This document shows positions 16,113 through 38,367 of a stretch of 64,000 nt of DNA, one piece after another. A program made the translations under genes and the position numbers. The stretch comes from Pseudomonadota bacterium (GTDB lineage: Bacteria; Myxococcota_A; Polyangia; Palsa-1104; JAEUJZ01): NCBI GenBank assembly GCA_035340095.1, contig DAORGN010000003.1, forward strand, positions 732 through 64,731. The letters are read 5' to 3'. The notes below the pieces were generated by a model. It was not told the origin of the DNA. It saw only the letters and a list, made by a program, of their open reading frames with translations, and made no database searches. Position 1 is the stretch's first letter. The number at the start of each line of letters is the position of its first letter.

Positions 16113-17990
16113 ATGACCGCCGCCGCGTCTGCCCTTCCGCTTCTGACCAAAGAGGAGTGTCTGGCGCAGCACCCCTTTCCCAAGGAATTTGCCGCCGCAA
16201 AGCGCCTGGAGTGGTTCTGGCATTACGACGTTGATCTGTCGGCAAAAGAGTTGTGGACGCTGGTGGCGGATTCGTCCCGGATGAATCGCGCGCTGCAAGT
16301 AAGCGAGATGAAGTTCGAGGATCGCAACGGGCAGCGTATTGGCAGCTCGCGACCGGGCGGATTTTTTCATGAGTGGCAGGAAGTGCCGTGGAACTGGGTG
16401 GCGGAACGATTCATCGAGTCTGTCCGTATCTACCGCAGCGGTTTTTCCAAAGTGGTCTACGCCGTGTTCATGCTTCAGCCGCTCTCGACGGAAAAAACCC
16501 GTCTGTATGTCTATTTTGGCGCGGTTCCCAAAAACCCCCTCACCAGTCTGGCACTGCGTTTGGGATTCCCTTCGGTGGGTCGCGAATATGCAAAGCTTTT
16601 GCCACGGCTCGCTGATGAAGTGCGCGAACGTCGACCGCTGTCTTTGGTACAGCCTGGCCCCGGACTCAGCGAAGCGGCGCAGCAGCGACTTGCGACAATC
16701 CGTCAGGACTTGATCGCAAAAGGACTCGATGTCCGCGCGGTCAACCAGCTCCTCGATTGGATTGCAAACGGCGATGAACAGGAGCTGTTCCGCATCCAAG
16801 TTCGCGAGCGCGCGCGCGCCTTTCAGGTCGACGAAGATGCGCTGCTTCGGGTGTGTCTGCATGCGACGCGATTGGGACTTTTGGAACTAAGCTGGGACGT
16901 CATGTGTCCGCACTGCCGCGGTGTCAGCAAACAGAACGGCAGTCTGGGTGACATAAGTACGCAAGGGGCCTGCGAAGTCTGTCTTATCGACTTTGGTACC
17001 GACTCAAGTGATGCAGTCGAGATCACGTTTCATGTCCATCCATCGATCCGCGAGGTGCCGCTGCGGACGTTCTGTAGTGCGGAACCAGCGACGAAAGAAC
17101 ACATCCGGGTGCAGCACAGTGTCCCCCCCGATGGCAAGCAGATTCTCTTGCCGCCGCTTCCCAAAGGACGCTATCGGCTGCGCTGGCAAGGACACAAGCG
17201 CTACGGCTACCTGGATGTGGGGGTGCCAAGCGGTGCGCGTGAAATCGACTGGCGGACAAGCAGCCAGCCATGCGAGCTTTCCGTCGACAGTGACTTTGCG
17301 CTGCAGCTTCACAACGACAGCTCCGAAACCGCTCTGTTTGTGCTGGAGACCGCACAGTGGAGCGACTTGGCACTGCGACCTGGACGCATTTTTAGTCTTC
17401 AGGAATTCCGTGATCTGTTTCGGGAAGAGTATCTAAGCGCCGATGTTCAGCTTGCGATTGGACAACAGACGATTCTGTTTACGGACATGGTTGGATCGAC
17501 GGAGCTTTACGCAAAACAGGGTGATGCGGTGGCATTCCGTGAAGTCCGCCGCCATTTTGCCGATGTCTTCCGCATCATCGCGGAACATCGTGGCGCCGTG
17601 GTCAAAACAATCGGCGATGCGGTCATGGGCGCGTTTACCAGTCCGCTCGATGCCGTCCTGTCCGCCAAGGCCATTCACGACTGTTTTCACCCCGGACGGA
17701 GCGACTCACTGACCAAGCTGCGCATCTCGGTGAACGTCGGTCCGTGCATCGCGGTCAAGCTCAACACCGACATTGATTATTTTGGACACACCGTCAATGT
17801 CGCGGCCAAACTACAAAGCCTGGCCGGGGCCTGGCAAGTGGCGCTTTCCGATGAAGTGTATTTTGCCCCTGGCGTCGCTGACTGGCTGGCAAAAGAGCCT
17901 GCAAAACTAGAAGCAGTCCGTTACGAATCTCCTTCACTCCTTTCGCCGATCAGCGGCAAGCGCTGGACGGTCTACGAAGGAGGCCCGTAG
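16113..17990 (+). CDS. Cytoplasmic class III adenylate/guanylate cyclase with N-terminal sensor region and Cys4 zinc-ribbon-like motif
   Basis: C-terminal cyclase motifs TILFTDMVGSTELY, VVKTIGDAVMGAF and DYFGHTVNVAAKL. The central segment is CPHC...18 aa...CEVC. No TM segments are evident. Confidence 0.85.
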   Translation: MTAAASALPLLTKEECLAQHPFPKEFAAAKRLEWFWHYDVDLSAKELWTLVADSSRMNRALQVSEMKFEDRNGQRIGSSRPGGFFHEWQEVPWNWVAERFIESVRIYRSGFSKVVYAVFMLQPLSTEKTRLYVYFGAVPKNPLTSLALRLGFPSVGREYAKLLPRLADEVRERRPLSLVQPGPGLSEAAQQRLATIRQDLIAKGLDVRAVNQLLDWIANGDEQELFRIQVRERARAFQVDEDALLRVCLHATRLGLLELSWDVMCPHCRGVSKQNGSLGDISTQGACEVCLIDFGTDSSDAVEITFHVHPSIREVPLRTFCSAEPATKEHIRVQHSVPPDGKQILLPPLPKGRYRLRWQGHKRYGYLDVGVPSGAREIDWRTSSQPCELSVDSDFALQLHNDSSETALFVLETAQWSDLALRPGRIFSLQEFRDLFREEYLSADVQLAIGQQTILFTDMVGSTELYAKQGDAVAFREVRRHFADVFRIIAEHRGAVVKTIGDAVMGAFTSPLDAVLSAKAIHDCFHPGRSDSLTKLRISVNVGPCIAVKLNTDIDYFGHTVNVAAKLQSLAGAWQVALSDEVYFAPGVADWLAKEPAKLEAVRYESPSLLSPISGKRWTVYEGGP

Positions 17991-25260: not shown

Positions 25261-26157
25261 CTACTTGCGCAGCGACACCATCGTCACACCGCACAGAACC
25301 AGCACACTGCCGATAAGCTGGCCCATCGTCACCTGTTCACCCAGCAGGAAATGGGCAAGCAGAATCGTTGACACGGGGCCAATCGTGGTCAATATCGCGG
25401 CGGGTCCGGAACCCACCAGACCGATTCCTTTGGCCAACAGCCAGGTCGGAATCACCGTCGCTACGGTCGCCAAAAGCAGCCCGTATCCATACACCGGCAG
25501 CGGCAGGCCCGAAAGCGGTCGACCGGCCACAATCCAGTGCACAAAAATCGCGACCGTGGCCGACAGAAGTGAATAGGAATTGAAGCGTGCCGCACCCACT
25601 TTGGGAATCAGCCGACCCGCGCCCAGAAGATACAGCGCATAGCCAACCGAACATCCCAGCACTAGCAGCGAGCCCTTCATCACGAGCGGACCGGACAGAT
25701 TTTGTTCGTGATGAAACACAATTCCCATGCCCGCATACGTGACCCCAAGCGATAGTACATGCAGGCGGCGCAGCGGCGTTCGGAAGAGGAGTGCCGCCAA
25801 GAGAACCACAAAGGTCGGATACAGAAACAGAACCAGTCTTTCGAGGGAGGCAGAGATATACAAAAGCCCCAGAAAATCAAGCATGCTAGATATGTAATAT
25901 CCAGTAATTCCCAGCAGCACAGTCAGCGCCATTTCACGTTTGCTAAGCCGCGCGGTCGCTTTTTTTTCCGAAAAATACGCGGTCAGCAGAAGCAGCGGCA
26001 CGGCCATGAACATCCGCAAGGACAATACCTGAAGCGCATCCGCGCCGAGTCGATAGGCCAGCTTGGCCAGGATCGCTTTGGTTGAAATGGTGATGCCGCT
26101 GAGCAGCACCAACATCGCACCTTCGATCCGCTGTTTGGTCAGGTTCCCATCTGACAT
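25261..26157 (-). CDS. EamA/DMT-family transporter
   Basis: Start trimmed to MSDGNLTKQ (ATG 26157), 23 nt downstream of the methyltransferase stop. It has about 10 TM segments and the duplicated EamA-like organisation. Confidence 0.8.
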   Translation of the reverse strand: MSDGNLTKQRIEGAMLVLLSGITISTKAILAKLAYRLGADALQVLSLRMFMAVPLLLLTAYFSEKKATARLSKREMALTVLLGITGYYISSMLDFLGLLYISASLERLVLFLYPTFVVLLAALLFRTPLRRLHVLSLGVTYAGMGIVFHHEQNLSGPLVMKGSLLVLGCSVGYALYLLGAGRLIPKVGAARFNSYSLLSATVAIFVHWIVAGRPLSGLPLPVYGYGLLLATVATVIPTWLLAKGIGLVGSGPAAILTTIGPVSTILLAHFLLGEQVTMGQLIGSVLVLCGVTMVSLRK

Positions 26158-26179
26158 GATCGCTTCCCAAGCGAACCCC

Positions 26180-26974
26180 TTATGGGGGCGAATCGCCGTC
26201 GCTGCCTTCATCACTCCGATCGCCAGAAAGATGCGCCACGACAAGTCGCAGTCCGGCATCCATTGATTCCTGATTGCGGAGCTTGCCGAACTGTTCGTCC
26301 CAGCGACCATGCTTCAGATCGGCGCGAAGTTGGGCGATTCCCTGCACCAGCTCCACCGGATTGAGAAGCTGAAACGCCGACATCGAATTTCGTACACTGG
26401 GATCAAGATACACTTCCGGTCGGCCCCAAAATGCATCAATGAAACCGTCGGTGCAGTCGTGCGGAATCAAGACAGGGATGCTCGTCACCGGTCCCAGTGC
26501 TTCTTCAAAAAAACTGCGCGCTGGCATCCGGCGACGATGCGCGGCAGCGATTCCGGGAAAGTACACATTGGTGATCCAGCGATCGGGAAACACCTCACCG
26601 TGCGGAAGATAAGTCAGGATCACGATGCGCTGGCGGGCCACACGACGCAGCTCACGAAGCCCACGCGGAACATCCAGCCAGTGATGCACGGTCATAAAGG
26701 CCGTCACGGCATCCACCGACTGATCGATGAGTGGCAACCGTTCCGCTTCGCCAACGATCGCTGGCGCCGCATCAAGTGGACGCTGCCGGATCATCATTTC
26801 AGATGGTTCCAGCGCGACCACTTTGCGATTCGGCGATTCATAGGAACCGGTTCCGGCCCCGACGTTGAGCACCGAAACACAGTCTCCCAGCGCCTCTTCG
26901 ATGAGAGCCGCGAACCGTGGGTCGGGACGCCGCTTCCGCTGATAATCTCTGCCAATCCGATCGTACCGAGCCAC
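26180..26974 (-). CDS. Class I SAM-dependent methyltransferase
   Basis: Motif I is VLNVGAGTGS. An acidic residue after beta-2 (VVALEPS) and the post-I/II motifs are consistent with the Methyltransf_11-like fold. Confidence 0.8.
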   Translation of the reverse strand: MARYDRIGRDYQRKRRPDPRFAALIEEALGDCVSVLNVGAGTGSYESPNRKVVALEPSEMMIRQRPLDAAPAIVGEAERLPLIDQSVDAVTAFMTVHHWLDVPRGLRELRRVARQRIVILTYLPHGEVFPDRWITNVYFPGIAAAHRRRMPARSFFEEALGPVTSIPVLIPHDCTDGFIDAFWGRPEVYLDPSVRNSMSAFQLLNPVELVQGIAQLRADLKHGRWDEQFGKLRNQESMDAGLRLVVAHLSGDRSDEGSDGDSPP

Positions 26975-26989
26975 TCTTTTTCGCTTCCG

Positions 26990-27757
26990 TTACAAAGGAC
27001 GAGGCGGAAGTTCGTAGCATTCTGGCAAACGATCGACTCCGCACCGCAGCGTCTCACACCAGTTCAAAAACTGTGTCACCATTTCGCGACCGCGAAACAG
27101 GGCCCCATGTTGCGGCGCAATGACTTCAATGTCCAGCGTTCGGACAAGCTTGACCCACGTTTTCAGCGCCAGGCTGGACGCCATGTAGCGCTTGTGAAAT
27201 CCGCTCATGAAAGGTACGTGGTCTTCAAAGTCCGGAACTTCACGGTATTCGCAGCCCAGCGACGCACCAACATCCCCGGTGTAGAGAATTTTGGACGTCG
27301 GATCATACAAGTGAAAGTTTCCCGCCGAGTGCAGGAAGTGAGCCGGGATCAGCGCCAATTCCGATCCATTGAGATCGAGCCACATTCCTTCATCCGGAAT
27401 CGCGCGCAGCCGATGTTCAAACTGCTCCTCGATCTCGACATGCGGAATGAAGCGTAGCCAGAGCAGCGACACGTATGCGAGCGCATCGGTTGCCCGCAGC
27501 CAATCGTTGATTCCTGACACTATGTCAGGATCTTGATGGGACAAAAACAGGTGGCGAATCTGTGCACCACCCGACATCACAGCGGTGTCCTCAAACAACC
27601 GCTGGAACACCGCGTGTCCCCCAGGATCGAGGAGAATGCACTCGCCGTTGTGAACGATCAGGTGGTGGTTCGCCTGCACCGCGAGGCCGGAAGTACCGAG
27701 GTTCTGGAGAAGAATGTTGCTATGACTCTCGCCGCGAAACAGGGTGATCTCGGACAT
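26990..27757 (-). CDS. Metallo-beta-lactamase-fold protein
   Basis: LLDPGGH and the variant metal motif LSHQDPDIVSG, with later His/Asp ligands (GDVGAS, PQHG), fit an MBL fold. Confidence 0.72.
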   Translation of the reverse strand: MSEITLFRGESHSNILLQNLGTSGLAVQANHHLIVHNGECILLDPGGHAVFQRLFEDTAVMSGGAQIRHLFLSHQDPDIVSGINDWLRATDALAYVSLLWLRFIPHVEIEEQFEHRLRAIPDEGMWLDLNGSELALIPAHFLHSAGNFHLYDPTSKILYTGDVGASLGCEYREVPDFEDHVPFMSGFHKRYMASSLALKTWVKLVRTLDIEVIAPQHGALFRGREMVTQFLNWCETLRCGVDRLPECYELPPRPL

Positions 27758-27799
27758 CGTGGTCTTGCTCCTGTCAGATTCTGCTTACCAGCGACTGCG

Positions 27800-28240
27800 T
27801 TAGGGGGCCCGGTCGTGTCGAATCGTGCCGGATGAAAACAGCCGCGAGCGCCGCGCGAGGAATCGCTCCACAGCCTGTGTCAGCAGCTTGGGATCGCGCG
27901 ATTTCGGAATGGAACCATCAGCGCCACAGCGACGGGCAAGCTCGGACAGCTCCGCCTCTGGAAGCGAGGAATGAAGCAGAATCACAACGCCTTTCCCATA
28001 GCTGGCGGCACGCACAAGCTGACAGACTTTGTCACCCGTAATGGACGGCATGTTCACGTCGACGATAACCATATCGGGCTGGTGACGAATGACCTCACGG
28101 GTGATACCAAGTGGAGAGTCGAAGCTATGGACTACATACCCCTCCGCTTGCAAGAGAAGCTGAACGTAGGTAAGAAATGTTTGACTGTCGTCGAGCACAA
28201 AGATTTTGGCTCGCTGATCATGTTGCGGAGCGCGCTCCAT
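27800..28240 (-). CDS. Single-domain (CheY-like) response regulator
   Basis: Acidic pocket VLDDS, phospho-acceptor VIVDVNMP, conserved LHSS and IPKS. No output domain. Confidence 0.88.
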   Translation of the reverse strand: MERAPQHDQRAKIFVLDDSQTFLTYVQLLLQAEGYVVHSFDSPLGITREVIRHQPDMVIVDVNMPSITGDKVCQLVRAASYGKGVVILLHSSLPEAELSELARRCGADGSIPKSRDPKLLTQAVERFLARRSRLFSSGTIRHDRAP

Positions 28241-28690
28241 GGGAATCGTCCTCTGGCGAGGTGTTCACTCGGTGTAGGCCCGCATCATAGCAGGCACCCG
28301 CTTTTACTGTCGAACGTAATATTGGATGACAGTCCCACTTTGTCAAATCACAACACATGACAAAAGTCGCAAACGACATCCACAGACATCAATATATGTA
28401 GCATTCTATAAGCTTCATATTGAGTAGTATGTTTCCGCATTTTCCGTCGGTTCGGAATCGCACGGAGACAGCATTGGCTCAGCATCCGACCATTGCGCCG
28501 CACAAGCAAAACGCATCTCCGATCGATGCATATCGACGCGATCCCCAGTCAGAAGATGTCCGGGCTTTTCCGGTGACGACAGTATTACAAAAAATAGTCC
28601 GTCTGCGTTTAGCTAATGATTTTTGTTCCGCAAGTACGGTCGGGTCCATGTAAAAATGGATCATCGATACAGCCGGGGGGCTGCTTCGCG

Positions 28691-29203
28691 ATGGGGGAAG
28701 CCAGCAAAGTGTCAGGGGTCACGCAAGAGCTGCTCATTTTCGAGCTTGGGGAACGGCTCTATGCACTCCCTTCGAGCCAAGTCAGAGAGGTGCTGCGGGC
28801 CTTCAGCGCGGTGCCGATTCCCAATGCGCCCGCGATTGTCGAAGGACTCCTGAATGTCCGGGGTGACATCATTCCGCTGCTCAGTCTGCGTCGCCGTTTG
28901 GGAATCGCGGAGCGTCCCCTGTCTTTGACCGACCACTTCATCATCGCCAAAGAGGGAAGTCGGCTGCTGGCCCTGCGTGTCGATCGTGTCGTCAATCTGC
29001 AGCGCGCCAGCTTCCAAAGGCCTTTCGATCCGGGCCGCTATGCGTCGGGAAGCGAAGTCATCTCTGGCGTCGCCACGATTCCGGATGGAATGGTTCTGAT
29101 TCACGATCTGGGACGATTCCTATCCGCTGAGCAGAGTGAACAGCTCGACCGCGCAGTCCGTGATGCAGCGGGAGCCGTCCGCGAAGAAAAGGAATCGACA
29201 TGA
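28691..29203 (+). CDS. cheW: CheW-like coupling protein 1
   Basis: Start trimmed to MGEASKV. The CheW fold pattern is LLIFELGERLYALPSSQVREV...VEGLLNVRGDIIPLLSLRRRLG. Confidence 0.85.
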   Translation: MGEASKVSGVTQELLIFELGERLYALPSSQVREVLRAFSAVPIPNAPAIVEGLLNVRGDIIPLLSLRRRLGIAERPLSLTDHFIIAKEGSRLLALRVDRVVNLQRASFQRPFDPGRYASGSEVISGVATIPDGMVLIHDLGRFLSAEQSEQLDRAVRDAAGAVREEKEST

Positions 29204-29805
29204 GCCAGGAACCAAAGAGCCACTTCCAGCAGCTCATTTCTCGGCTGGCCAAGGTCGCGGCGGCGCTGGATGAATCGTTGGCACACACCGAAGCCCGTGT
29301 CCGCGAGCAGCTTGATGCCCGCGCCAGACTGATGGCGTATGCCGTCGACCGCGTGCGCAGTGAAGACCAGGGGATGGAAGTGCTGGCCTTTTTGCTCGGC
29401 TCGCAGCGCTGCGCCATCGCGACTCGATTTGTCATCGAGATGTTTCCCGCTCCAGCCATCACCCGCTTGCCAGGAACCGACCCATACATTTTGGGAATCT
29501 GCAACGTGCGGGGACAGCTGCTCTTGGTATTCGATCTGGCTCTTCTTTTCGGTTTCCCTTCACAAAAGACAGACAGCACCATGCAGATTCTGTTGCTTGG
29601 TGCAGAACGTCCGGAATTCGGTGTTCTCTGTTGTGGCGATGGACTGACGCTGCGGCTTCCCAAGTCGAGTCTGTCACGCTCTGCCGAACTGCATGAGCCT
29701 CCGTTTTTCGGCTGTATTGATGCAGTCACCAGCGACGGACTCCTCCTATTCGATGGAAAAGAGCTGATGCGAGATCAGCGGCTCTTTGTCAACCAGACGG
29801 GATGA
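29200..29805 (+). CDS. cheW: CheW-like coupling protein 2
   Basis: ATGA overlap with cheW-1. The pattern is LAFLLGSQRCAIATRFVIEM...ILGICNVRGQLLLVFDL. Confidence 0.8.
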   Translation: MSQEPKSHFQQLISRLAKVAAALDESLAHTEARVREQLDARARLMAYAVDRVRSEDQGMEVLAFLLGSQRCAIATRFVIEMFPAPAITRLPGTDPYILGICNVRGQLLLVFDLALLFGFPSQKTDSTMQILLLGAERPEFGVLCCGDGLTLRLPKSSLSRSAELHEPPFFGCIDAVTSDGLLLFDGKELMRDQRLFVNQTG

Positions 29806-31070
29806 AAGACCCCATGAGTACTTTCCGATCTGTTCTTTCCAGTACACAGAAGCAGACCAGCTATCTGCTTCTGCTGATTGTGTTTGGTGGACCCGCGTTC
29901 ATCATCGTTCGGCTCCTGTTTCCTGATCTGGCGGGACCAAGTCCCAATCCAAATGAGCCAGCCTTTGTCCTGACCTATGGACCACCGCTTTTCGCCGCAC
30001 TTGCTGCGATGGGGACGCTCTTACAGCTCCAGCGCTACTTCAATCAGTTTCATCGATTCACGACGCTGGGTCAGCGAATGCCAAGCGCGCTCCCACAAGC
30101 GGATTCGCAAGGTCGCAGCATCGGCAGCGAAACGCGAGAGCTCATCGACACGCTGATTTCACTGCACTCCGTTTCGCAAGCGCTGCGCAGCGAAAACGAG
30201 CAGCAGCGCGGAGAACTTCAGCGGCTCAGCAGTCACTATGAATCGCTTCATCAGTCTCTGCTTTCACGCATGGAATCGCTGCTAAGCGCCCCGGTGGAAG
30301 AACTGCCAGATCGAGCCAGCGCCCGCCAAAACGCGCCGCATGCGATGGAAGGGCTGCGCCAAAATCTGGATGACGCCCTGACCCGTGCCCGATCGCAGCG
30401 TGACTTGATCGATCAGATCGTCAGACAGACGCATCACAGCCATGCAGAAACAGAGTCCGCGCACGAACGTCTTTTGTCTCTGCGGAGCAAAAGCAGCGCG
30501 CTGTCTACAGCCATGCAGGAACTGATGAATCGCACGCAGACCGTCGGACAGATTGCTGCATCGGTGAAACTTCTGGCCAGTGAAATTGATCACGTCGCAC
30601 TCAACGCAACGATTGAAGCCGCGCGCGCTGGTGATGTCGGTCGCGGCTTTTCCATTGTGGCTGCGGAAGTCCGTTCCCTGGCAGAACAGTCCAAGGGTGC
30701 GGCACAAAAAATGCGCCAGGTGCTAGAGGAAATTCAGCAAGCCAGCAAAAGCACGCTGTCGTTCGCGATGGAAAGTGAACAGAGCATCGAAGAGCTGGCC
30801 GATACCACGCGGCAGACTGCGGCGTCCTTGCTGTCGCTAGAAAACGAAGCAACGGAAGCGCAGGATTCGGTGTCGCAGCTTCTGTCCAGCATGGAATCAC
30901 AGACCGGCAGTGTGTCCGTGATCCAAGCCGCCCTGCATGGAACTGCGCAGGGAAGCGAGCAGCTCCAGCGTCTTATCCATCGCAATGAAGAGCTGCGGCA
31001 CATTCTGTATTCGGCCCAGACCGAAAAAACGATCACGGCGAGCGCGGTATCCCAAGGAGCCAGACGATGA
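29802..31070 (+). CDS. Short methyl-accepting chemotaxis protein (two TMs, no periplasmic or HAMP domain evident)
   Basis: ATGA overlap with cheW-2. The signalling hairpin tip is ALNATIEAARAGDVGRGFSIVAAEVRSLAEQS. Confidence 0.85.
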   Translation: MKDPMSTFRSVLSSTQKQTSYLLLLIVFGGPAFIIVRLLFPDLAGPSPNPNEPAFVLTYGPPLFAALAAMGTLLQLQRYFNQFHRFTTLGQRMPSALPQADSQGRSIGSETRELIDTLISLHSVSQALRSENEQQRGELQRLSSHYESLHQSLLSRMESLLSAPVEELPDRASARQNAPHAMEGLRQNLDDALTRARSQRDLIDQIVRQTHHSHAETESAHERLLSLRSKSSALSTAMQELMNRTQTVGQIAASVKLLASEIDHVALNATIEAARAGDVGRGFSIVAAEVRSLAEQSKGAAQKMRQVLEEIQQASKSTLSFAMESEQSIEELADTTRQTAASLLSLENEATEAQDSVSQLLSSMESQTGSVSVIQAALHGTAQGSEQLQRLIHRNEELRHILYSAQTEKTITASAVSQGARR

Positions 31071-32335
31071 GCAGCGATTCCTTTTTATCGCGGCGACGTT
31101 TCGGGACGTTGCTTCTGTCATCCACAGCATCGCTCCTGGCTGGCTGTCCGCAGCGCAGCGGATCGTCAGATGATGCAGTGAAAGTGGGGGTTCTGCACGC
31201 GCTCAGCGGAACGATGGCGATCATTGCCAAGCCGGTCGCAGAAATGACGATGTTTGCGATTGAGGAGATCAATGCGCAAGGCGGTCTGCTGGGAAGAAAA
31301 CTTGTCCCCCTTCTGGTCGATGGCCGATCCGATCCCGCGGTGTTTGCCCGTGAAGCAGAGCGTCTGATCGTCGACGAACATGTCAAAGTTGTGTTCGGAC
31401 TCCTGAACTCTGCGAGTCGGCGCACCACCAAGTCGGTCTTCGAAAAGTACAACCACTTGCTGTTCTATCCGATGTCCTATGAAGGGCTGGAACAGTCCCC
31501 CAACATCATTTACACCGGGGCCGCGCCGAATCAGCAGATCACACCCGCGGTGAAGTGGTGTTTTGACAACCTGGGCAAGCGTTTCTTTTTGGTAGGAACC
31601 GATCAAGTTCATTCGCGCGCCGCCAACGCCATGATCCAAGATCAGGTCTCTGCTATCGACGGTGAAGTGGTCGGTGAAGCGTATGTTTTGTGGGGCAGCA
31701 AAGACGTAAAATCGGTGATCGAACAGATCGAGACCCGCAAGCCATCGGTCATCGTAAACAGCATCACCGGGGATTCAAACCTGGCGTTTTTCCGCGAGCT
31801 GCGCAGAGCCGGAATCACCCCAACCAAAATTCCTACGCTGTCGTTTGCGCTGACAGAACATGAGCTGGCCGCGCTGAACACGCGCGAGATGGCGGGCGAC
31901 TATGTTGCGTGGAACTACCTCCAGGCGCAGTCGAACCCTGAAAACATCGAGTTTGTGAAACGAGTCAGGGCTCGCTTCGGGGCCAACTCCGTCGTCGATG
32001 ATCCGATGGAATCGGGCTACCTGAGCGTGTATTTGTGGGCGGCTGCGGTGCGCGCGGCGCGTTCCTTTTCCCCTGATCTGGTGCTGGGAACGCTTCCCAA
32101 CCAAAGCTACAACGCCCCCGAAGGTCTGGTGTACGTCGACGCCGAAAACAACCATGTCTGGCGATCGGCGCGGATTGGCAAAATCGATACCGATGGATCG
32201 TTTGATCTGGTGTGGGAATCCGGACGTGCGCTGCGTCCGGTTCCCTATCCAATCTACCGAACGAAAGCTGACTGGGAGACGCTCCTAAACGACCTGTTCA
32301 TTGGTTGGAAGCGTCAGTGGATGAACCGAGGTTAA
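31067..32335 (+). CDS. Exported UrtA/AmiC-family urea/short-chain-amide binding lipoprotein (orphan; no permease genes nearby)
   Basis: ATGA overlap with the upstream MCP, and AAGGAG lies 7 nt upstream. The N-terminus is SRRRFGTLLL...LLAGC. Family signatures are VKVGVLHALSGTMAI, AIEEINAQGGLLGRKL, LLFYPMSYEGLEQSPNIIYTGAAPNQQ and APEGLVYVDAENNH. Confidence 0.85.
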   Translation: MSSDSFLSRRRFGTLLLSSTASLLAGCPQRSGSSDDAVKVGVLHALSGTMAIIAKPVAEMTMFAIEEINAQGGLLGRKLVPLLVDGRSDPAVFAREAERLIVDEHVKVVFGLLNSASRRTTKSVFEKYNHLLFYPMSYEGLEQSPNIIYTGAAPNQQITPAVKWCFDNLGKRFFLVGTDQVHSRAANAMIQDQVSAIDGEVVGEAYVLWGSKDVKSVIEQIETRKPSVIVNSITGDSNLAFFRELRRAGITPTKIPTLSFALTEHELAALNTREMAGDYVAWNYLQAQSNPENIEFVKRVRARFGANSVVDDPMESGYLSVYLWAAAVRAARSFSPDLVLGTLPNQSYNAPEGLVYVDAENNHVWRSARIGKIDTDGSFDLVWESGRALRPVPYPIYRTKADWETLLNDLFIGWKRQWMNRG

Positions 32336-32344
32336 GAGGCTTCC

Positions 32345-34447
32345 ATGCAGATTCCTACAACACGAGAGCTGCTTCGCATTCTAAGCAAACCACGTCTGGC
32401 AACCCGACTGCTTGGCTGGTTTTTGATTCTGACCACGGGACCGCTTGCGCTCATCATGTACATCACGTATGAGCGCGGCGCCTCGGCGATCCGGCGCGAG
32501 GTGGAACAGTCGCTGGAAGCGACATCCAAAGCCCGCGCGGTGGCGATCGAAAACTACGTTGTGGAGCGCAAACGCAACGCCTCGGGTCTGTCAAGAATAC
32601 CTGACATCGTGGCAACCATGGCTGACTTTCACCAAGCGTTCACCCGCGGCGGCCTCAAGTCACCGGCGTTTGATGAAATCGATCAGCGGATGCGCCCGTT
32701 TCTTACTTCGGTAAAGGAGTCGCGCGGCTATTCCGATCTGTTCCTGATTTCACCCGATGGAGACTGTCTGTTTTCCGTCGCCAAAGCCGAAGTCTGGGGC
32801 ACAAACGTACTCTCCGGACCGTACCGTGATTCCAGCTTGGCGCGGGTGTTCGAACGCACGCGATCGATGCTCGATTCCGAAGTGTCTGACTTTGACTACT
32901 ACCAAGCGAGCAATGACTCCGCCGCGTTCATTGCCGCGCCGATCATGCGTGGCAAAACGCTGGTCGGAATCATCGAGCTTCAGCTAAACAACCAAGAAAT
33001 TTATCGCTTGCTTGCGGACTACACAGGTCTTGGCGAAACGGGTGAAACGGTCGTGGTCTCACTGCGCAACGACAAGATCATTTACATGGCACCGACGCGC
33101 CGCGATCCGGACGCCGCATTCCGCCGCCAAATCTGGAATCGTGATCTTCCCAAATACCGCGCGCTTTATGAATCGTCGCAGGGTCGCACGTCCACGTCTG
33201 CGGAAACGGTCACAGACTACGGCGGCAAGCAGGTCTTGGCGGTATGGCGATTTTTGCCATCGTTCCGCTGGGGCATGGTGACCAAAGTCGACATCGAGGA
33301 AGCGACCGCAGCCATCACCGCGATGCGCCGCGATCAGCTTGTGATCGCGCTGTTTGCGGTTCTGGTGGTGATTGGCGCGGCGCTGTACGTTGCGCGATCG
33401 ATCTCCGAACCGATTGTGAAACTCACCCAGAGCACCAATCTCATCGCCAGTGGGAATCTGGATGAACGGATCGATATCTCGTCGGAAGATGAGGTCGGAG
33501 AGCTGGCCGCGGCATTTAACAAAATGACTGCGGACCTGAAAAATACGCTGGTTTCACGCGATGCACTCAAAGATCAGATTCGCCACCGTGAGCTGCTCAC
33601 TGCGACGATTCGCAATGTCGTTTCGCAACTGGGAACCACCAGCGCGGACATTCTGAATGCAGCAGCCAAGCTGTCTCATGGCGCACGCGAGCAAGCCAGT
33701 GCGGTCAAAGATGCAGTCACCGCAGTCGATGACGTGTCACAGACTGCCGCCCAAGCCGCAAGCCGCGCTCGCAAAGTTGCCGACTCTGTTCGCCGTTCCG
33801 AAGAAGTCGGCAAGGCCGGACGCAAAGCAGTCACAGACACGGTGGAAGTGCTCGGCATCGCAAAGGAACGATCAGACAAGGTGGCAGAAAACATCGTTGC
33901 ACTTGCTGAAAAGACCCAAGCCATAGGTGAGATCATTGCCACCGTAAGTGAGATCGCAGAACAGACCAACTTGCTGTCGCTGAACGCCGCAATCGAGGCG
34001 TCGCGCGCGGGGGAACATGGACGCGGCTTCACGGTGGTTGCAAGCGAAGTCAAAGCGCTCGCAGAACAGTCCAAGAAAGCGACCGGACAAGTTCGCAACA
34101 TCCTAGAGAGCATTCAAAAAGCGATCAGTACGGCGGTGTATTCGACAGAACAAGGCATCCACAGCATGGTCACAGCAACGGAAGCGGCAGGCCAAGCCGG
34201 CGAAACGATCTCACGACTATCAGAGATCATTGCCGAGGCCGCAACGGTGTCTACGCAGATCATGAACTCGGCGACTCAACAGGCGACAGGAATGGATCAC
34301 GTCGGTTCGGCGATGGGAAGCATCAATCAGATCGCGACCCAAAACATGTCTGCCACCGCGCAGACAGAACACGCAGTTCGCGAGCTGAACGGAATCGGTC
34401 TCAAGCTCACCGAGCTGCTGAAGGATTCGGGACAAGCTGGAGCGTAA
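32345..34447 (+). CDS. Methyl-accepting chemotaxis protein with periplasmic Cache-like domain and HAMP
   Basis: TM1, then a Cache-like region ([17 protein letters not shown]...[18 protein letters not shown]), TM2, HAMP ([14 protein letters not shown]), and the signalling tip [33 protein letters not shown]. Confidence 0.9.
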
Positions 34448-34450
34448 GAC

Positions 34451-36703
34451 ATGGACAAGTCTGTCCTCATCCAGCGTCTGCTTGAGACATTTCTCGTCGA
34501 GTTCGACGAGCGCCTGCAGGCCATGAGCCGCGGTCTGCTGGCGCTTGAAGCGAGTGCGACTGGGACTCCTGAGCGGGACAAAAACCTGCAAGAACTTCTG
34601 CGCAATGCCCACAGCCTAAAAGGAGCTGCGCGCGCGGTCGAAGTATCCCTGATTGAAAAGTCCTGCCATCATCTGGAAGAGATTTTGGCGGCGGTGCGCA
34701 ACCATCCGACCCTGCTCGACCAACACCTGATTCAGCTTCTGTTTGGTGTGCTGGACGGACTGGCGGAAGCAGGAAAGCTGCTTCGGAAACAGGAACCACT
34801 AGAGGGCTCGCTGTTGTTTGGCGTAGCGCTCGAAATGGAGATGTTTATCGAGAGCACCATCCGTCCGCTTGGAAAGGAACCGGCCCAGGCTCTAGCTGCG
34901 CCGCCACCAGCACAGATCGCGAAGTCCGATCCAAACGCTGATGCCGAAAATGCGGTCTCTTCCGATCTTCCTACGGTTCGTATCCACACCGAAAAGCTCG
35001 ATGCGCTGCTCACGCGGAGTGGCGAGCTGTTGACTGCGCGACAACATCTGCGTTTGACAAGCGAGCAGCTTTCACAGGTCGCAGATTCGATCCGAAGACT
35101 GGAATCGGAGTGGCGCCACCACGGCAAGGGGAATGCCAAAATCGGCAGTCCCACCAGCAAGACAGCGACGAAAACAGGCGATTCCCTGGTGGAAGAGACG
35201 CCCGCACGGCTGACCGAACTTGTCGCCCAGATCGACAAGCTTCAGCTTGCATTGCGCCAGGACTTGCGACAGCTGGAGCACACTGGATCAGCGCTCGATC
35301 AGCAGGTGTCGCGCATTCGCATGCTGCCGTTTTCGCATGCGTGTGTGGGTTTTGATCGAATGGTCCGCGATCTGGCCCGCAACAGCGGCAAAGACATCGA
35401 GCTACGAATCGAAGGCGGCGATGTCGAGCTGGATCGCTCCGTGCTCGACGCGCTCAAAGATCCGCTCCGCCACCTGATTCGCAACTCGATCGATCACGGA
35501 ATCGAAAGACCGGAAGACCGCAAGCGCAGCAAAAAATCGCCCCGTGGAACGATCATCGCTTCAGCTACGTTGCGCGGTGGACAAGTGGCCATTGTGATTT
35601 CTGATGATGGTCAGGGGCTTGTTGCGGATTCGATTCGCAAGCGTGCACAGAAGTTGGGAATGCCGATTCCTGACACCGATCAGAAGCTGATCGATGCGAT
35701 CTTTATGCCGGGTTTTTCGACGGCAGCGGACTCTGTTTCGATGGTCTCTGGACGCGGCATTGGACTTGATGTGGTGCGCAATCAGATCAAGTCTCTGCAT
35801 GGCGAAGTAGACGTTTCGTTTGTGCCCGGAAAAGGAACCCAGTTCCAACTGACTGTGCCACTGACACTGACGCTTCTGCGGGTACTTCTCATCCGTGCGG
35901 CGGATCAGACGTTTGTGGTCAGCAACAACTACGTGCACAAGCTGCTGCGGCTCCGGCAAAATGAAGTGATCTGGATTGGCGAAAGGCCGATGATTGTCAT
36001 CGACAATCAGCCCATTCATCTGGATTCCTTTGCGCATGCGCTGTCGCTTCGGCAACCGACAGGAATCACCTGGCAGGGAAAGCGTCCGGTGGTGGTGCTG
36101 CGTTCCGAACAGCGCACCGCTGCATTTTTGGTTGATGAGCTTGTCGCCGAACAGGAAGTGACGGTCAAAAGCCTGGGAAGTCGTGTAAAGCGAATCCGCA
36201 ACGTGGCTGGCGCAGTGATCATGCCCGATGGCCAGGTGGCGCTGACGATTCACGTTGCCGATCTGTTGCACACCGAGAAGCCAGATGAATCGCTGGGCGC
36301 GCTTCGACATGGCGGAGCACAAGACTCGGGTGAGCGCAAACAGAGACGGATCTTGGTCGTCGATGACTCGGTGACAACCCGCAGTCTGGAACGAAGTCTG
36401 CTGGAATCCGCGGGCTTTTCGGTCGAGCTGGCAGCAGACGGAGTCCAAGCGTGGGATCGCATTCAGTCCGGTGAAATCGATCTGGTGCTGTCGGATGTCG
36501 ACATGCCTCTGCTCAACGGCTATCAGCTCACGCAGACAATTCGCAAGTCTGAGCTCTTCCGTAAACTTCCGGTCATCTTGATCACCAGCAACGATGATCA
36601 GCGCAGCCGCGAACGCGGAATCGAAGCCGGCGCGAGTGCCTACATGACCAAAGGCACGTTTGATCAGAGCGTCCTGCTCAGCGTCATCGAACAGCTCATC
36701 TAG
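34451..36703 (+). CDS. cheA: CheA histidine kinase fused to a C-terminal receiver domain
   Basis: Hpt site LLRNAHSLKGAARAV, HATPase (DPLRHLIRNSIDHGIE, SDDGQGL, GRGIGLDVV), a CheW-like P5 domain, then REC (ILVVDDS...LVLSDVDMPLLNG...MTKG). Confidence 0.93.
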   Translation: MDKSVLIQRLLETFLVEFDERLQAMSRGLLALEASATGTPERDKNLQELLRNAHSLKGAARAVEVSLIEKSCHHLEEILAAVRNHPTLLDQHLIQLLFGVLDGLAEAGKLLRKQEPLEGSLLFGVALEMEMFIESTIRPLGKEPAQALAAPPPAQIAKSDPNADAENAVSSDLPTVRIHTEKLDALLTRSGELLTARQHLRLTSEQLSQVADSIRRLESEWRHHGKGNAKIGSPTSKTATKTGDSLVEETPARLTELVAQIDKLQLALRQDLRQLEHTGSALDQQVSRIRMLPFSHACVGFDRMVRDLARNSGKDIELRIEGGDVELDRSVLDALKDPLRHLIRNSIDHGIERPEDRKRSKKSPRGTIIASATLRGGQVAIVISDDGQGLVADSIRKRAQKLGMPIPDTDQKLIDAIFMPGFSTAADSVSMVSGRGIGLDVVRNQIKSLHGEVDVSFVPGKGTQFQLTVPLTLTLLRVLLIRAADQTFVVSNNYVHKLLRLRQNEVIWIGERPMIVIDNQPIHLDSFAHALSLRQPTGITWQGKRPVVVLRSEQRTAAFLVDELVAEQEVTVKSLGSRVKRIRNVAGAVIMPDGQVALTIHVADLLHTEKPDESLGALRHGGAQDSGERKQRRILVVDDSVTTRSLERSLLESAGFSVELAADGVQAWDRIQSGEIDLVLSDVDMPLLNGYQLTQTIRKSELFRKLPVILITSNDDQRSRERGIEAGASAYMTKGTFDQSVLLSVIEQLI

Positions 36704-36846: not shown

Positions 36847-37668
36847 ATGTGTATGGGTGTCGTGATCGGCTCTGTCACGGAAGAAGTTCCAGGACTTGCG
36901 ATACGCAGCTTCCTCGATCCGGAAGGACTCCGTCTTTCCGAAGAAGATCGCGAGCCGCGCAGTACAGAGGCCTGGATTCACTCGATCGTACTACACACCA
37001 CCAAAGGCATTCCGGGTGGTTCCGATCAGCGAAGACAGCAAATCCTCGATGGAAGTGGGCCGCACAAAAACCACATCGCTGCGGTTGCACAGGCCTGGGC
37101 ATCGGATCACATCTGCGCCAGCGCGCACTTCCTAATCGATCAGGATGGAACCATTGCCTGCGTCGCTGACTTGCTGACCGAAACGACGTACCATGCCGGG
37201 CAGCGCGCGGTGAATCACCACTCGATCGGAATCGAAATGTACCAAGGTGAGGAAGCAGAGCTGTACGCTTTCCAACTGGAACAGACTGTCCGTTTGGTGG
37301 ATTTTTTGACCCGGCGATTCGGCATTCAGCGACAGTTTCACGCCCCCTATCGCAACCAAGCGGTGCTGCGGATAAAGGAAGGTGGTTCGTCGGTGGTTGC
37401 CGTGTATGGACACCGTGAAGCCAGCGATGATCGGGGGGTCGGCGATCCAGGCGATGCGATCTTTTCGGCGCTCCTTGCGGCGGGTTATGAATGCTTTGAC
37501 TTCGACAAGGAAGAAGATCGCGCGGTGTGGAAAGTTCGCCAAACAGACCTAAACCAAAAGCTCGGTCTGTCACTGACTGTCGACGGAGTTCCCGGTCCGG
37601 AAACGGTCGTGGCACTGCGAACGGCGGGCTACCCGCATGGGATGTGGATTCCGCGCCCAGGGGACTGA
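36847..37668 (+). CDS. N-acetylmuramoyl-L-alanine amidase (Amidase_2/PGRP type) with a C-terminal peptidoglycan-binding domain
   Basis: The catalytic region is IVLHTTKG...HFLIDQDGTI...YHAGQRAVNHHSIGIEM...YGHRE. The C-terminal segment LGLSLTVDGVPGPETVVALRTAGY resembles PG_binding_1. Confidence 0.8.
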   Translation: MCMGVVIGSVTEEVPGLAIRSFLDPEGLRLSEEDREPRSTEAWIHSIVLHTTKGIPGGSDQRRQQILDGSGPHKNHIAAVAQAWASDHICASAHFLIDQDGTIACVADLLTETTYHAGQRAVNHHSIGIEMYQGEEAELYAFQLEQTVRLVDFLTRRFGIQRQFHAPYRNQAVLRIKEGGSSVVAVYGHREASDDRGVGDPGDAIFSALLAAGYECFDFDKEEDRAVWKVRQTDLNQKLGLSLTVDGVPGPETVVALRTAGYPHGMWIPRPGD

Positions 37669-37773
37669 TTCTTCCACCCCGCACCTGATGTCTGCACCCC
37701 GCAGACTGCAAGCATCACGCGATCTTTTTCGACGGAAACACGCTGGCACAGCCGATGCAACAGCGGTCGTTTC

Positions 37774-38367
37774 ATGATGAAACAAACCGCACGCATTGTC
37801 CTTTCCGGTCTGTGGCTCCTATCGGGTTGTGGAACCGGGGAAGAAATCGAAGAGATCGACGTCGCGCCGCTGGAAGAAAAGGAAATCACGGCGACCTGTC
37901 CGCACAAAGCGCAGCTCAAGTGGGGTCTGCATCCCGACGCATCAGATCGACTGCGCTGCATCGGAATTGCCGCTGGGGACATCTCGCAGACGATTGGGAG
38001 TGCGCCCGCTTCCGCCGGATATCATGCACAAGACGGAACCGCGGGAGGCCAGCCGTACACCGCAGCGGTTGACATTCGGATCGGCGGACGCAGCGAAAGC
38101 CAGATTCGGGCGCTGCTCGCATCGCTCGGGTCGTATGGCTTCGCCGCGTGGTATCGCAAGCCCGGTCACGATGGCTGGCCAAGCGATGAAGCACCGCACA
38201 TTCACGCGGTCTACGCCGGCTGCGCGATGAAGGCGGCGCTCGACGAACAAGTCGGTGACTATCGCGCGGGTCGCAACGGCCTGTCGAGCCACACCCGCTA
38301 CACGTTCTGGACCGCGAGCCAAGCCGTCCGAGACGCCGTCTACAACCTGTGGAACAAGTACAACTAG
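37774..38367 (+). CDS. Lipoprotein, possibly a LAS/M15-like cell-wall peptidase (tentative)
   Basis: Lipobox LWLLSGC. Candidate metal ligands are GYHAQDG...AAVDIRI and EAPHIHAVY (H...D plus HxH). The enzymatic call is pattern-level only. Confidence 0.5.
   Translation: MMKQTARIVLSGLWLLSGCGTGEEIEEIDVAPLEEKEITATCPHKAQLKWGLHPDASDRLRCIGIAAGDISQTIGSAPASAGYHAQDGTAGGQPYTAAVDIRIGGRSESQIRALLASLGSYGFAAWYRKPGHDGWPSDEAPHIHAVYAGCAMKAALDEQVGDYRAGRNGLSSHTRYTFWTASQAVRDAVYNLWNKYN

Follow-up and report, generated by a model that had tools for sequence, protein, structure and literature searches.

The reading we favour, with moderate confidence, for the chemosensory operon in the 64-kb stretch of DNA analysed here (the window) is a Che6/Wsp-like (ACF-type) myxobacterial pathway, in which a dCache-HAMP receptor would have its own dedicated binding protein, periplasmic and tethered to the membrane, retuned from a signalling-only branch of the UrtA family. 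To judge from its gene neighbourhoods, this branch appears to be a two-gene input module, binding protein plus dCache-HAMP sensor, connected to many outputs in many phyla. No earlier published description of such a system was found in the literature.

Architecture of the chemosensory cluster

Six plus-strand genes make up the operon. The first encodes CheW1 (28691..29203, 170 aa; Pfam CheW, E 2.6e-27); a second open ATG lies upstream at 28616, and the start at 28691 is favoured because the ortholog in the related locus L001 also has 170 aa. CheW2 (29200..29805, 201 aa) carries its Pfam CheW domain at residues 60-161 behind an N-terminal extension of ~55 aa, and resembles in size and layout M. 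xanthus CheW6b, which has 200 aa and its domain at 57-189 (PMC3945109). There follow a short MCP (sMCP; 29802..31070), a UrtA-like binding lipoprotein (31067..32335; Peripla_BP_5, PF13433, E 1.6e-134), a dCache MCP (32345..34447; Pfam dCache_1, HAMP and MCPsignal) and a CheA-REC hybrid histidine kinase (34451..36703), whose Pfam architecture, Hpt-HATPase_c-CheW (P5-like)-REC, is identical to that of M. xanthus CheA6 (PMC3945109). This order and these coordinates, as given in the original prediction, agree with the ORFs and Pfam domains, and the ATGA overlaps at 29200, 29802 and 31067 and the gaps of 9 nt and 3 nt can be read straight from the sequence. The six genes of the proposed system are therefore real; a seventh conserved gene, for a divergently encoded single-domain response regulator at 27800-28240, had been overlooked. 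The Frz/ACF-like layout that had been recognised is borne out as Che6/Wsp (ACF)-like by the CheA-REC hybrid and the two CheWs (PMC3945109), with CheR(TPR) and CheB not encoded in the cluster.

Synteny of the seven genes is kept in relatives at 61-87% identity, and the association of che genes with the binding-protein gene, for which a check in related genomes had been suggested, is preserved down to 61-70% identity. Across all cluster genes dN/dS lies at 0.04-0.22: CheW1 0.22 (vs L001), sMCP 0.18, CheA-REC 0.098, the binding protein 0.093, the response regulator 0.08 and the dCache MCP, the most constrained gene of the cluster, 0.036. The binding-protein gene is under strong purifying selection.

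The two receptors differ in layout. In the sMCP, Pfam finds MCPsignal only (residues 234-379), with sensor domain and HAMP absent, and its gene occupies the same position in all che-embedded relatives. It had been described as a two-TM protein; in the hydropathy profile, a strong segment at 18-44 is followed by a weaker one at ~55-76 (Kyte-Doolittle mean ~1.53 vs 2.53 for the first, by hand calculation), so that the first segment stands and a hairpin is plausible but uncertain. The dCache MCP has TM1 at ~22-41 and TM2 at ~330-352 by hydropathy, a periplasmic dCache domain at ~43-323 and a hairpin tip at E557; the C-terminal arm runs for 143 residues from the tip, or ~20 heptads, a length compatible with class 40H. 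This MCP is presumed to be the receptor for the UrtA-like binding protein.

A signalling-type subfamily of UrtA-like proteins

The binding protein had been called an orphan. That label does not hold: it belongs to a signalling-dedicated subfamily and is therefore no stranded transporter part. A UrtA-like gene directly followed by a gene for a homologous dCache-HAMP sensor was found at 71 of 83 informative loci from many phyla, a count that covers the query's own subfamily and not the whole UrtA family, because the loci were fetched as best matches to the query. The homologous dCache domains score 56-731 bits by phmmer, and the other 12 loci are mostly signalling contexts too. The sensors end in MCP, histidine kinase or hybrid histidine kinase, SpoIIE/PP2C and adenylate or guanylate cyclase outputs, and fusions of a Ser/Thr kinase to the binding protein (Pkinase::Peripla_BP_5) also occur. 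In the window the two genes adjoin with a 9-nt gap. The proposed role of the lipoprotein as dedicated partner to the neighbouring Cache MCP is thus supported by the pairing in 71/83 loci, by the interchangeable outputs and by the lack of adjoining urtB or urtC.

A distinctive feature of the subfamily, a grouping defined in the present analysis, is a Trp-rich C-terminal extension (residues ~396-422 in the window protein) with the consensus YR[ST]KxEWxxFLxxLYxGWxxxWANPG. Its three near-invariant Trp residues (W403, W414 and W418) are found in 215-219 of 226 aligned sequences, and the extension is absent from AmiC and from the three UrtAs of transport type taken for comparison, those of D. radiodurans, Novosphingobium and Rhizobium. 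Transport UrtAs encoded in urtABCDE-urease clusters show only ~43% identity; a neighbour-joining tree splits the subfamily from them in only 46/100 bootstraps, leaving that clade unresolved. All nine urea contacts are conserved in most members, which are on that account predicted to be urea sensors.

UrtA homologs are classically the binding proteins of ABC transporters. The window protein might accordingly feed mainly an importer encoded elsewhere and signal secondarily, as MBP does with Tar, and dual-use binding proteins are known (PMC8050422). We regard this as very improbable. UrtB and UrtC homologs were found neither beside any signalling-type locus nor in the 64-kb window. For the window, the claimed absence of urtBCDE was confirmed twice over: Pfam detected no ABC-transporter domain in any substantial ORF, and UrtB/C/D/E seeds matched nothing, while the transport controls (L104, L105 and L107) were positive at 215-800 bits. 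The gene is moreover translationally coupled within the che operon, its C-terminal extension is missing from the three transport UrtAs, and the same type of protein is fused directly to Ser/Thr kinases.

A remodelled ligand pocket

The N-terminus of the binding protein carries a Tat-like SRRRF motif and an LLAGC lipobox, which, like the other peptide strings quoted in the original prediction, are all present. A cytoplasmic amide sensor of the AmiC type was rejected on these export signals and on the absence of an ANTAR domain from every scanned ORF of the window (Pfam). Pfam, an AF2 model (mean pLDDT 89.6) and Foldseek agree on the type I periplasmic binding protein fold of the Peripla_BP_5 family; the best Foldseek match is the urea-binding protein 8tg1 (TM 0.84/0.96). 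The string YPMSYEG, taken earlier as a UrtA signature, does occur, but the family form is YP[IV]QYEG and the difference falls on the urea-contacting Gln.

In P. marinus UrtA, urea is contacted by W120, S122, Y141, Q144, E146, Y190, (F192), N246 and S274, and mutation of W120, Q144, Y190 or N246 weakens or abolishes binding (PMC10392092). The corresponding residues in the window protein are L113, S115, Y134, S137, E139, Q180, H182, T234 and A261. Six of the nine contacts are replaced, among them four of the five mutation-sensitive residues (W120, Q144, Y190 and N246). Those kept, S115, Y134 and E139 (UrtA S122, Y141 and E146), are common to AmiC too. Written as strings, the pocket reads LSYSEQHTA in the window, YSYPEYYVT in AmiC and WSYQEYFNS in its canonical form, which is present in 108/120 top homologs and in every CheR/CheB- or HK-linked relative. 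Substitution of family-invariant sites is concentrated in the pocket (6/9 vs 10/92; Fisher p = 4e-4). The remodelling marks a Myxococcales clade of 18 sequences, which departs from the canonical pocket usual in the subfamily, is monophyletic in 100/100 neighbour-joining bootstraps and is nested among canonical-pocket, che-embedded relatives.

The ligand assignment first put forward was urea or a short-chain amide, bound by the lipoprotein and handed to the Cache MCP in a dedicated urea or amide pathway. The family fold, the ~45% identity to crystallised urea-binding proteins, the retained S115, Y134 and E139, and the complete urea pocket of the nearest canonical che-cluster relatives (L005, L007 and L101) are all consistent with it, and urea binding by the rebuilt pocket is possible. 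We nevertheless consider this assignment unlikely and do not uphold it, since the replaced W120, Q144, Y190 and N246 are each mutation-sensitive in P. marinus UrtA (PMC10392092), the AmiC pattern is unmatched as well, and against TIGR03407, the NCBIfam model for the substrate-binding protein of the urea ABC transporter, the protein scores 415 bits, under the curated cut-off of 492.75. With six of nine contacts lost and the rebuilt pocket held by selection in the Myxococcales clade, a small molecule other than urea is the probable ligand; it may still carry an amide- or carbonyl-like group, because the Ser, Tyr and Glu shared by UrtA and AmiC are kept.

Within the clade the pocket is not uniform: position 190 is Q, L or D, position 192 H, Y or L and position 246 T or N (P. 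marinus UrtA numbering), giving at least seven pocket signatures among the 18 sequences. Such variation could reflect relaxed constraint instead of new specificity. The protein would then be a ligand-independent co-receptor left after decay of its site and serving the dCache MCP in a structural or regulatory capacity, with the signal entering through dCache itself or through the sMCP and a nearby ODP gene. Compatible with this are the varied signatures, the higher identity to L001 of the periplasmic dCache domain (96.8%) than of the binding protein (87%), and the position of the ODP gene near a sensor-less MCP. The substitutions, however, follow a pattern and are not random: every clade sequence has an aliphatic residue at position 120 and S or T at position 144, and T114N, P183S and L209W are fixed in 18/18 clade sequences. 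The whole-protein dN/dS of 0.09 and the retained Ser/Tyr/Glu amide-binding core likewise make a decayed site doubtful, and a retuned binding protein remains the reading we prefer.

Divergent operon and adaptation genes

The seventh gene encodes a CheY-like single-domain REC (27800..28240, minus strand; Pfam Response_reg) with its acidic pocket DD, acceptor D, S and K all intact. It adjoins the cluster in L001, L002, L010, L011, L102 and L103, and in L005/L006 it is co-directional as the first gene of the cluster. The divergent REC counts as a conserved component of the pathway, likely a phosphorylation target or output. The divergent control region between REC and CheW1 (28241..28690) contains sigma-70-like matches, which are consensus matches only, on the minus strand upstream of REC at 28346-28318 and 28313-28284; no such match was found there for the plus-strand operon.

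Downstream of REC in the same operon lies an ODP-family di-iron protein (26990..27757, minus strand; Pfam ODP, E 4.6e-65), then a class I SAM methyltransferase of the Methyltransf_11 family, not a CheR (26180..26974, minus strand; Pfam), and an EamA gene (25261-26310; Pfam). The last two recur as neighbours in L001, L102 and L103. An ODP gene adjoins REC in the window, L001, L010 and L011 but not in L002, L102 and L103. The ODP of T. denticola senses O2 and is coupled genetically to an MCP that lacks a sensor (PMC7666581). A second, O2 or Fe input through the sensor-less sMCP is a speculative possibility.

The claim that cheR and cheB are missing was substantiated for both the operon and the 64-kb window: Pfam found no CheR or CheB domain in any substantial ORF, and a six-frame phmmer search with CheR/CheB seeds returned receiver-domain matches only. 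The closest canonical-pocket relatives retain cheR, and also cheB where the locus reaches past cheA; both are present in L005/L006 and L007, which have the canonical pocket, and L101, sister of the window clade, combines a canonical pocket with CheR and a QQ site. That receptor QQ methylation site of CheR/CheB-containing orthologs is KL here (~441-442), and two candidate EQ/QQ sites are retained. As the operon lacks cheR and cheB and one receptor QQ site is lost, the window clade would adapt less or not at all, or would do so through enzymes supplied in trans. In L103 a stand-alone CheB methylesterase is encoded 1.4 kb downstream, and orphan CheR and CheB genes exist in M. xanthus (PMC3945109). 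The CheR and CheB of the window pathway may likewise be encoded elsewhere in the genome.

Proposed signal flow

Ligand would close the binding protein, and the loaded form would dock on the periplasmic dCache domain, by analogy with LuxP on LuxQ; at a guess, the Trp-rich C-terminal helix may help in docking. Together with the sMCP and the two CheWs in mixed arrays, the HAMP and signalling domains would then modulate CheA. CheA in turn would phosphorylate both its own receiver and the divergent CheY-like REC, which would act on a non-flagellar target.

Comparison with known systems

The cluster resembles the ACF-class systems M. xanthus Che6/Che4 and P. aeruginosa Wsp in its CheA-REC hybrid, its two CheWs (of which the second has ~200 aa and is extended at the N-terminus) and its non-flagellar host. 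Canonical-pocket relatives have the order of Che6, CheW-CheR(TPR)-CheW-MCP...CheA-REC-CheB (PMC3945109). Unlike the window cluster, Che6 and Wsp include CheR and CheB, have a single MCP and lack a gene for a binding protein; the output of Wsp is REC-GGDEF, whereas the window shows a single-domain REC only. The T. denticola ODP-TDE2496 pair is similar in placing an ODP di-iron gene near an MCP without a sensing module (PMC7666581), but a membrane hairpin is plausible for the sMCP of the window, and ODP sits in the divergent REC operon and is missing in L002, L102 and L103.

The fold is that of UrtA (P. marinus 8HIC, Synechococcus 7S6E/F and C. saccharolyticus 8TG1; Foldseek TM 0.82-0.84, rmsd 1.4-1.7 A, 40-45% identity), with a common Ser/Tyr/Glu pocket core. 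The window protein differs from UrtA in its lack of permease and ATPase genes, six replaced contacts of nine, a score below the TIGR03407 cut-off, the W-rich C-terminal segment, its nature as a lipoprotein with a Tat-like signal and the location of its gene inside a che operon. With AmiC (~29% identity, TM 0.82) it shares the use of Peripla_BP_5 for signalling only and not for transport. In P. aeruginosa, AmiC is a cytoplasmic product of the amidase operon that sequesters AmiR, an ANTAR protein, whereas the window protein is exported and lipid-anchored, has no ANTAR gene and reads LSYSEQHTA against YSYPEYYVT in the pocket.

Binding-protein and receptor genes are adjacent for BasB/BasT, CosB/CosT and LuxP/LuxQ, which contradicts the notion that such genes are never linked. 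In the BasB/CosB type of Halobacterium salinarum, the binding protein is lipid-anchored and its gene adjoins the MCP gene. All three pairs are tabulated in a review of binding proteins and their receptors (PMC8050422). As proposed here, the binding proteins of H. salinarum serve a dCache-like MCP, and BasB belongs to Peripla_BP_6, the sister Pfam family (PMC8050422). Those systems are archaeal, act in flagellar (archaellar) taxis towards amino acids or compatible solutes, and lie outside any cheA/cheW operon, unlike the window genes. LuxP-LuxQ, TorT-TorS and HptA-HptS likewise join a type I periplasmic binding protein, dedicated to signalling, to a membrane sensor with a dCache-like periplasmic domain (PMC8050422). 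LuxP is a Peripla_BP_4 protein with AI-2 as ligand, and the window protein a Peripla_BP_5 member (UrtA/AmiC family) with a distinctive C-terminal extension. In contrast to the LuxP-LuxQ type, the partnership here is a predicted one, its output is MCP/CheA, and at least five types of output accompany the module.

Organisation and conservation of the chemosensory operon

The chemosensory operon comprises six packed plus-strand genes (28691–36703), an arrangement that had been proposed in the original prediction and is borne out by open reading frames and Pfam matches. Two CheW proteins (Pfam CheW, E 2.6e-27 for the first and 1e-16 for the second) are followed by a short sensor-less MCP (sMCP; 29802–31070, 422 aa), which matches the MCP signalling domain only, and by a UrtA-like binding protein (31067–32335, 422 aa; Peripla_BP_5, E 1.6e-134). 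A dCache_1-HAMP-MCP receptor (dCache MCP; 32345–34447, 700 aa) and a hybrid CheA (750 aa; Hpt-HATPase_c-CheW-REC) complete the set. Read off the sequence, the gaps of 9 nt and 3 nt and the ATGA overlaps of stop and start codons (29200, 29802 and 31067) match the predicted ones exactly. The binding protein begins with MSSDSFLSRRRFGTLLLSSTASLLAGC, which carries a Tat-like motif and a lipobox. In the sMCP, hydropathy revealed a strong hydrophobic segment (18–44) and a weaker one (~55–76), and thus a membrane hairpin is plausible. Scanning for promoters and terminators yielded no informative match for the plus-strand operon.

Pfam searches of all substantial open reading frames in the 64-kb window detected neither CheR, CheB nor CheC/D/Z, as predicted, and no ABC transporter. 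Six-frame phmmer searches of the window with CheR and CheB seeds returned receiver-domain matches only, and UrtB/C/D/E seeds returned zero matches. An oversight of cheR or cheB by gene calling was ruled out, given that the six-frame search found no remnants. The genes around the operon are typical of Myxococcota, with mreBC, PBP2/rodA, HEAT- and PEGA-containing Ser/Thr kinases and several cyclases as neighbours, and the binding protein has its closest genomic relatives in Myxococcales MAGs (68–70% identity). Elsewhere in the window are two class III nucleotidyl cyclases whose sensor modules are uncommon (DAHL-cyclase and DUF5939-cyclase; 7633–9228 and 16113–17990) and two large Ser/Thr kinases (55339–61090). 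After the che operon lie genes for an Amidase_2 protein (N-acetylmuramoyl-L-alanine amidase) and a 197-aa lipoprotein without Pfam matches (36847–38367); these are kept in the related locus L001 and not in L002, and are therefore probably unrelated neighbours.

A seventh gene, encoding a single-domain receiver (REC; 27800–28240, minus strand), is divergent from the operon. The predicted coupling of che and binding-protein genes proved to be conserved, with the order REC, then CheW-CheW-sMCP-UrtA-like-dCacheMCP-CheA~REC, repeated in metagenomic contigs and MAGs (binding-protein identity to the window in brackets): L001 (87%), L010 (70%), L011 (68%), L103 (68%) and L002/3 (67%). A further locus, L102 (65%), has the same genes as far as the binding protein, followed by a transposase gene; this DDE_Tnp_1 gene (L102 11397–12767) lies directly 3' of the UrtA-like gene in the usual place of the dCache MCP, which suggests a cluster copy disrupted by an insertion sequence. 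All seven genes are under purifying selection, with dN/dS between the window and L001 of 0.036 for the dCache MCP, 0.08 for REC, 0.093 for the binding protein, 0.098 for CheA, 0.12 for the second CheW, 0.18 for the sMCP and 0.22 for the first CheW. Within the cluster, no segment is better conserved than the periplasmic part of the dCache MCP (96.8% identity to L001). A divergent REC-ODP-Methyltransf_11-EamA operon (25261–28240, minus strand) is conserved beside the che cluster, also in L001, L010, L011, L102 and L103, and its SAM methyltransferase, a conserved neighbour of the cluster, is not a CheR.

The binding protein and dCache sensor as a portable pair

Comparative genomics lends strong support to the core idea of the original prediction, in which the Cache MCP is fed by a dedicated binding protein. 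Relatives at 61–62% identity reside in fuller che clusters, namely porin-REC-CheW-CheR-CheW-sMCP-UrtA-dCacheMCP-CheA~REC-CheB (L005/L006) and CheW-CheR(TPR)-CheW-sMCP-dCacheMCP-CheA~REC-CheB-porin-UrtA (L007). Relatives at 48–59% identity occur in Planctomycetota, Gemmatimonadota, Victivallales, Omnitrophota, Bacteroidota, Clostridia, Brocadiaceae and Cyanobacteria, and there a dCache-HAMP protein, its sensor part homologous to that of the window, is encoded immediately 3' of the UrtA-like gene. After a metagenome scan had added 80 loci, a homologous dCache-HAMP sensor was found directly 3' in 71 of the 83 loci with enough downstream DNA, a count that describes the subfamily of the query, since loci were taken as best matches to it. 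Signalling contexts also make up most of the other 12, among them three fusions of a Ser/Thr kinase to Peripla_BP_5, a CHASE3-MCP accompanied by CheA and CheB, and dCache-PAS kinases in divergent orientation. The sensor is joined to various outputs, among them classical or hybrid histidine kinases, kinases of the HWE/HisKA_2 type, MCPs, adenylate/guanylate cyclases and one SpoIIE/PP2C phosphatase; in the cultured cyanobacterium Anabaena sp. UHCC 0451 the pair has a histidine kinase output. Seed searches found no UrtB or UrtC homologs in any signalling-type locus or in the window, and the same search scored 215–800 bits in three transport controls (urtABCDE of D. radiodurans and Novosphingobium, both beside urease genes, and of Rhizobium), whose UrtA proteins are 38–43% identical to the query.

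The signalling-associated proteins share a C-terminal extension of ~27 residues (YR[ST]KxEWxxFLxxLYxGWxxxWANPG), each of whose three Trp residues is present in 215–219 of 226 aligned sequences. In the alignment, this extension is absent from the three transport UrtAs and AmiC, and the AF2 model places a confident helix within it (400–413). The binding protein scores 415 bits against TIGR03407, below the curated cut-off of 492.75. Neighbour-joining (NJ) gave a clade of sensor-type proteins apart from transport UrtAs only 46/100 bootstraps; the subfamily is therefore argued from gene context and the C-terminal extension. The model (pLDDT 89.6) superposes on the C. saccharolyticus urea-binding protein 8TG1 (TM 0.84/0.96, rmsd 1.7 Å), as well as on cyanobacterial UrtAs and AmiC, which indicates that the fold is intact.

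Several loci show further variations in architecture. Single open reading frames with an N-terminal Ser/Thr kinase and a C-terminal UrtA-like part were found in L084 (2–2224), L087 (1892–4372; confirmed by Pfam, with Pkinase 104–360 and Peripla_BP_5 440–802) and L094 (4199–6634), so that the binding protein is wired straight to a eukaryotic-like kinase. In four low-GC contigs (L075, L079, L080 and L082), a membrane anchor at the N-terminus replaces the lipobox of the UrtA-like protein, and the next gene 3' encodes a dCache-HAMP-PAS-HisKA kinase of 768 aa that has diverged too far to match the phmmer seed. Porin_O_P-like outer-membrane porin genes accompany canonical-pocket modules of several lineages (L005 775–2142, L007 8780–9931, L008 8426–9643) and are absent from the window clade; such a porin may be the entry channel for the ligand. 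A TorF-family porin occupies the same position in the Novosphingobium transport cluster (L105). On pTS1 of Treponema saccharophilum (L106 3899–11193), a UrtA-like protein (41% identity, without the W-rich extension) comes after an adenylate/guanylate cyclase of 1008 aa and before a lone 241-aa "putative ABC transporter permease" and an MCP; this, too, seems to be a signalling association of a UrtA homolog, of a different kind. On pT136c of Rhizobium sp. T136 (L107 1415–5705), a bona fide urtABCDE operon has two divergently transcribed neighbours, a response regulator and a 1128-aa "ATP-binding protein" that is probably a sensor kinase.

Remodelling of the ligand pocket

Nine residues surround urea in P. 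marinus UrtA, as defined by its crystal structure and by mutagenesis: W120, S122, Y141, Q144, E146, Y190, F192, N246 and S274 (PMC10392092). Mutation of S122, Q144, Y190 or N246 reduced or abolished urea binding, and W120A abolished it (PMC10392092). Pocket columns were anchored on a HMMER alignment to 8HIC, in which all nine residues were recovered by number. The canonical combination WSYQEYFNS is present in 108 of the 120 best homologs and in each examined CheR/CheB-linked or kinase-linked relative, whereas the window protein has LSYSEQHTA and so lacks four of the five residues that mutagenesis had validated. Its near relatives have LSYTEQHTS, LSYTELHTT, VSYTELY(N/T)(T/S), ISYSEDHNT and ASDSEQLNT. 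Urea or a small amide, the ligand initially envisaged, is thus probably wrong for the window copy, with six of nine urea contacts replaced, and probably right for the canonical relatives. A preprint on an L-amino-acid-amide SBP deals with another family (SBP_bac_5) and offered no clue to the ligand.

Of 101 columns with at least 97% invariance across 190 canonical sequences, 16 differ in the window protein, comprising six of nine pocket columns versus 10 of 92 others (Fisher p = 4e-4). Throughout the clade of 18 remodelled-pocket Myxococcales sequences, position 120 is aliphatic and position 144 is Ser or Thr, and T114N, P183S and L209W, which flank pocket residues, are fixed in 18/18 members. 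Decay was considered as an alternative. Positions 190, 192 and 246 vary, and constraint there may be relaxed; pseudogenisation was rejected on a dN/dS of 0.09 and a reading frame intact across the clade. The non-random substitutions, together with this dN/dS, argue for a pocket that was rebuilt rather than decayed. Concrete residues for testing are L113, S137, Q180, H182, T234 and A261, plus N114, S183 and W209.

Loss of adaptation components

The remodelled-pocket sequences form one clade (100/100 NJ bootstraps) nested among che-embedded relatives with canonical pockets (90/100). Their sister, P0010 (locus L101), has a canonical pocket and keeps CheR upstream of the second CheW. In the window, the 4-nt overlap of the two cheW genes leaves no room for cheR between them, and cheA is followed, after 143 nt, by the unrelated Amidase_2 gene. 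The dCache MCPs of CheR-encoding relatives (L005, L007 and L101) have a consensus methylation site, AAxxQQSxGA, at whose QQ position (~441–442 in the window) the CheR/CheB-less clade has KL, RL or KQ; two other EQ/QQ pairs are retained (449–450 and 645–646). The clade therefore differs from its closest canonical-pocket relatives in three respects: the rebuilt pocket, an operon without cheR and cheB, and one missing methylation site.

A system without adaptation had been predicted, and this stands for the operon and the window but may not hold for the whole organism. M. xanthus has orphan CheR and CheB copies (PMC3945109), and the clade member L103 encodes a stand-alone 203-aa CheB_methylest protein without a receiver domain (13004–13615, minus strand), 1.4 kb downstream of cheA-REC. 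CheR and CheB could thus act in trans.

Proposed mechanism and output

The lipid-anchored binding protein would take up a periplasmic ligand and then dock on the dCache domain of the adjacent MCP. The signal would pass via HAMP to mixed arrays with the sMCP and two CheWs controlling CheA-REC, and phosphate would be transferred to the fused receiver of CheA and to the CheY-like REC. The catalytic residues of this REC are intact. Myxobacteria are not known to have flagella; given this and the Che6 gene order of canonical relatives, the output is likely to be motility reversal, development or another "alternative cellular function".

Of the seven clade loci that could be checked, four have the di-iron protein gene ODP (26990–27757, minus strand, in the window) after REC; it is missing in L002, L102 and L103. 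In L002, a gene for hemerythrin, another di-iron O2-binding protein, lies just downstream of cheA. In Treponema denticola, ODP senses O2 and is coupled genetically to an MCP without a sensor (PMC7666581). By analogy, the sMCP could carry a second input with ODP, which is speculative.

Significance and relation to known systems

The principle of SBP-fed receptors is already known. No description of the UrtA-like/dCache sensor pair was found in the open-access full-text literature, an absence that is not proof of novelty; a 2021 review of SBP signalling nowhere mentions urea, UrtA or AmiC (PMC8050422), and a paper on urea genomics in cyanobacteria notes a second urtA copy and no sensor. The UrtA-type/dCache module, its breadth of phyla and outputs, and the retuned CheR/CheB-less myxobacterial offshoot appear to be new.

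Taken jointly, a tentative reading, possible rather than probable, is that the sensor-type UrtA-like and dCache-HAMP pair is an unrecognised, phylum-spanning input module for extracellular urea, serving histidine kinases, chemoreceptors, PP2C phosphatases, cyclases and Ser/Thr-kinase fusions and mis-annotated as "urea ABC transporter substrate-binding protein", and that the window holds a myxobacterial offshoot neofunctionalised to a new ligand, without methylation-based adaptation and perhaps with a second O2/Fe input through ODP and the sMCP. Binding-protein-mediated sensing has so far come from a handful of systems, and here a whole UrtA subfamily seems dedicated to signalling and portable between outputs. 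If true, many metagenomic "urea transporter" genes would need re-annotation, and many bacteria might sense external urea via two-component and chemosensory pathways, which bears on nitrogen-cycle ecology. The window clade is a natural experiment linking specificity change to adaptation rewiring: one lineage (100/100) has a rebuilt pocket and lacks the cheR and cheB genes and the receptor methylation site kept by its nearest canonical-pocket relatives. For the canonical form, Anabaena sp. UHCC 0451 offers a culturable entry point.

The closest functional analogues of the pair are the SBP-receptor systems LuxP-LuxQ and Halobacterium BasB-BasT and CosB-CosT (PMC8050422). The window protein is related to UrtA by descent, yet fails three of four defining UrtA features, and is unlike AmiC in location and partner. 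The kinase module resembles Che6 and Wsp, but without CheR and CheB, and the gene order of M. xanthus Che6 is shared with the canonical-pocket relatives (PMC3945109).
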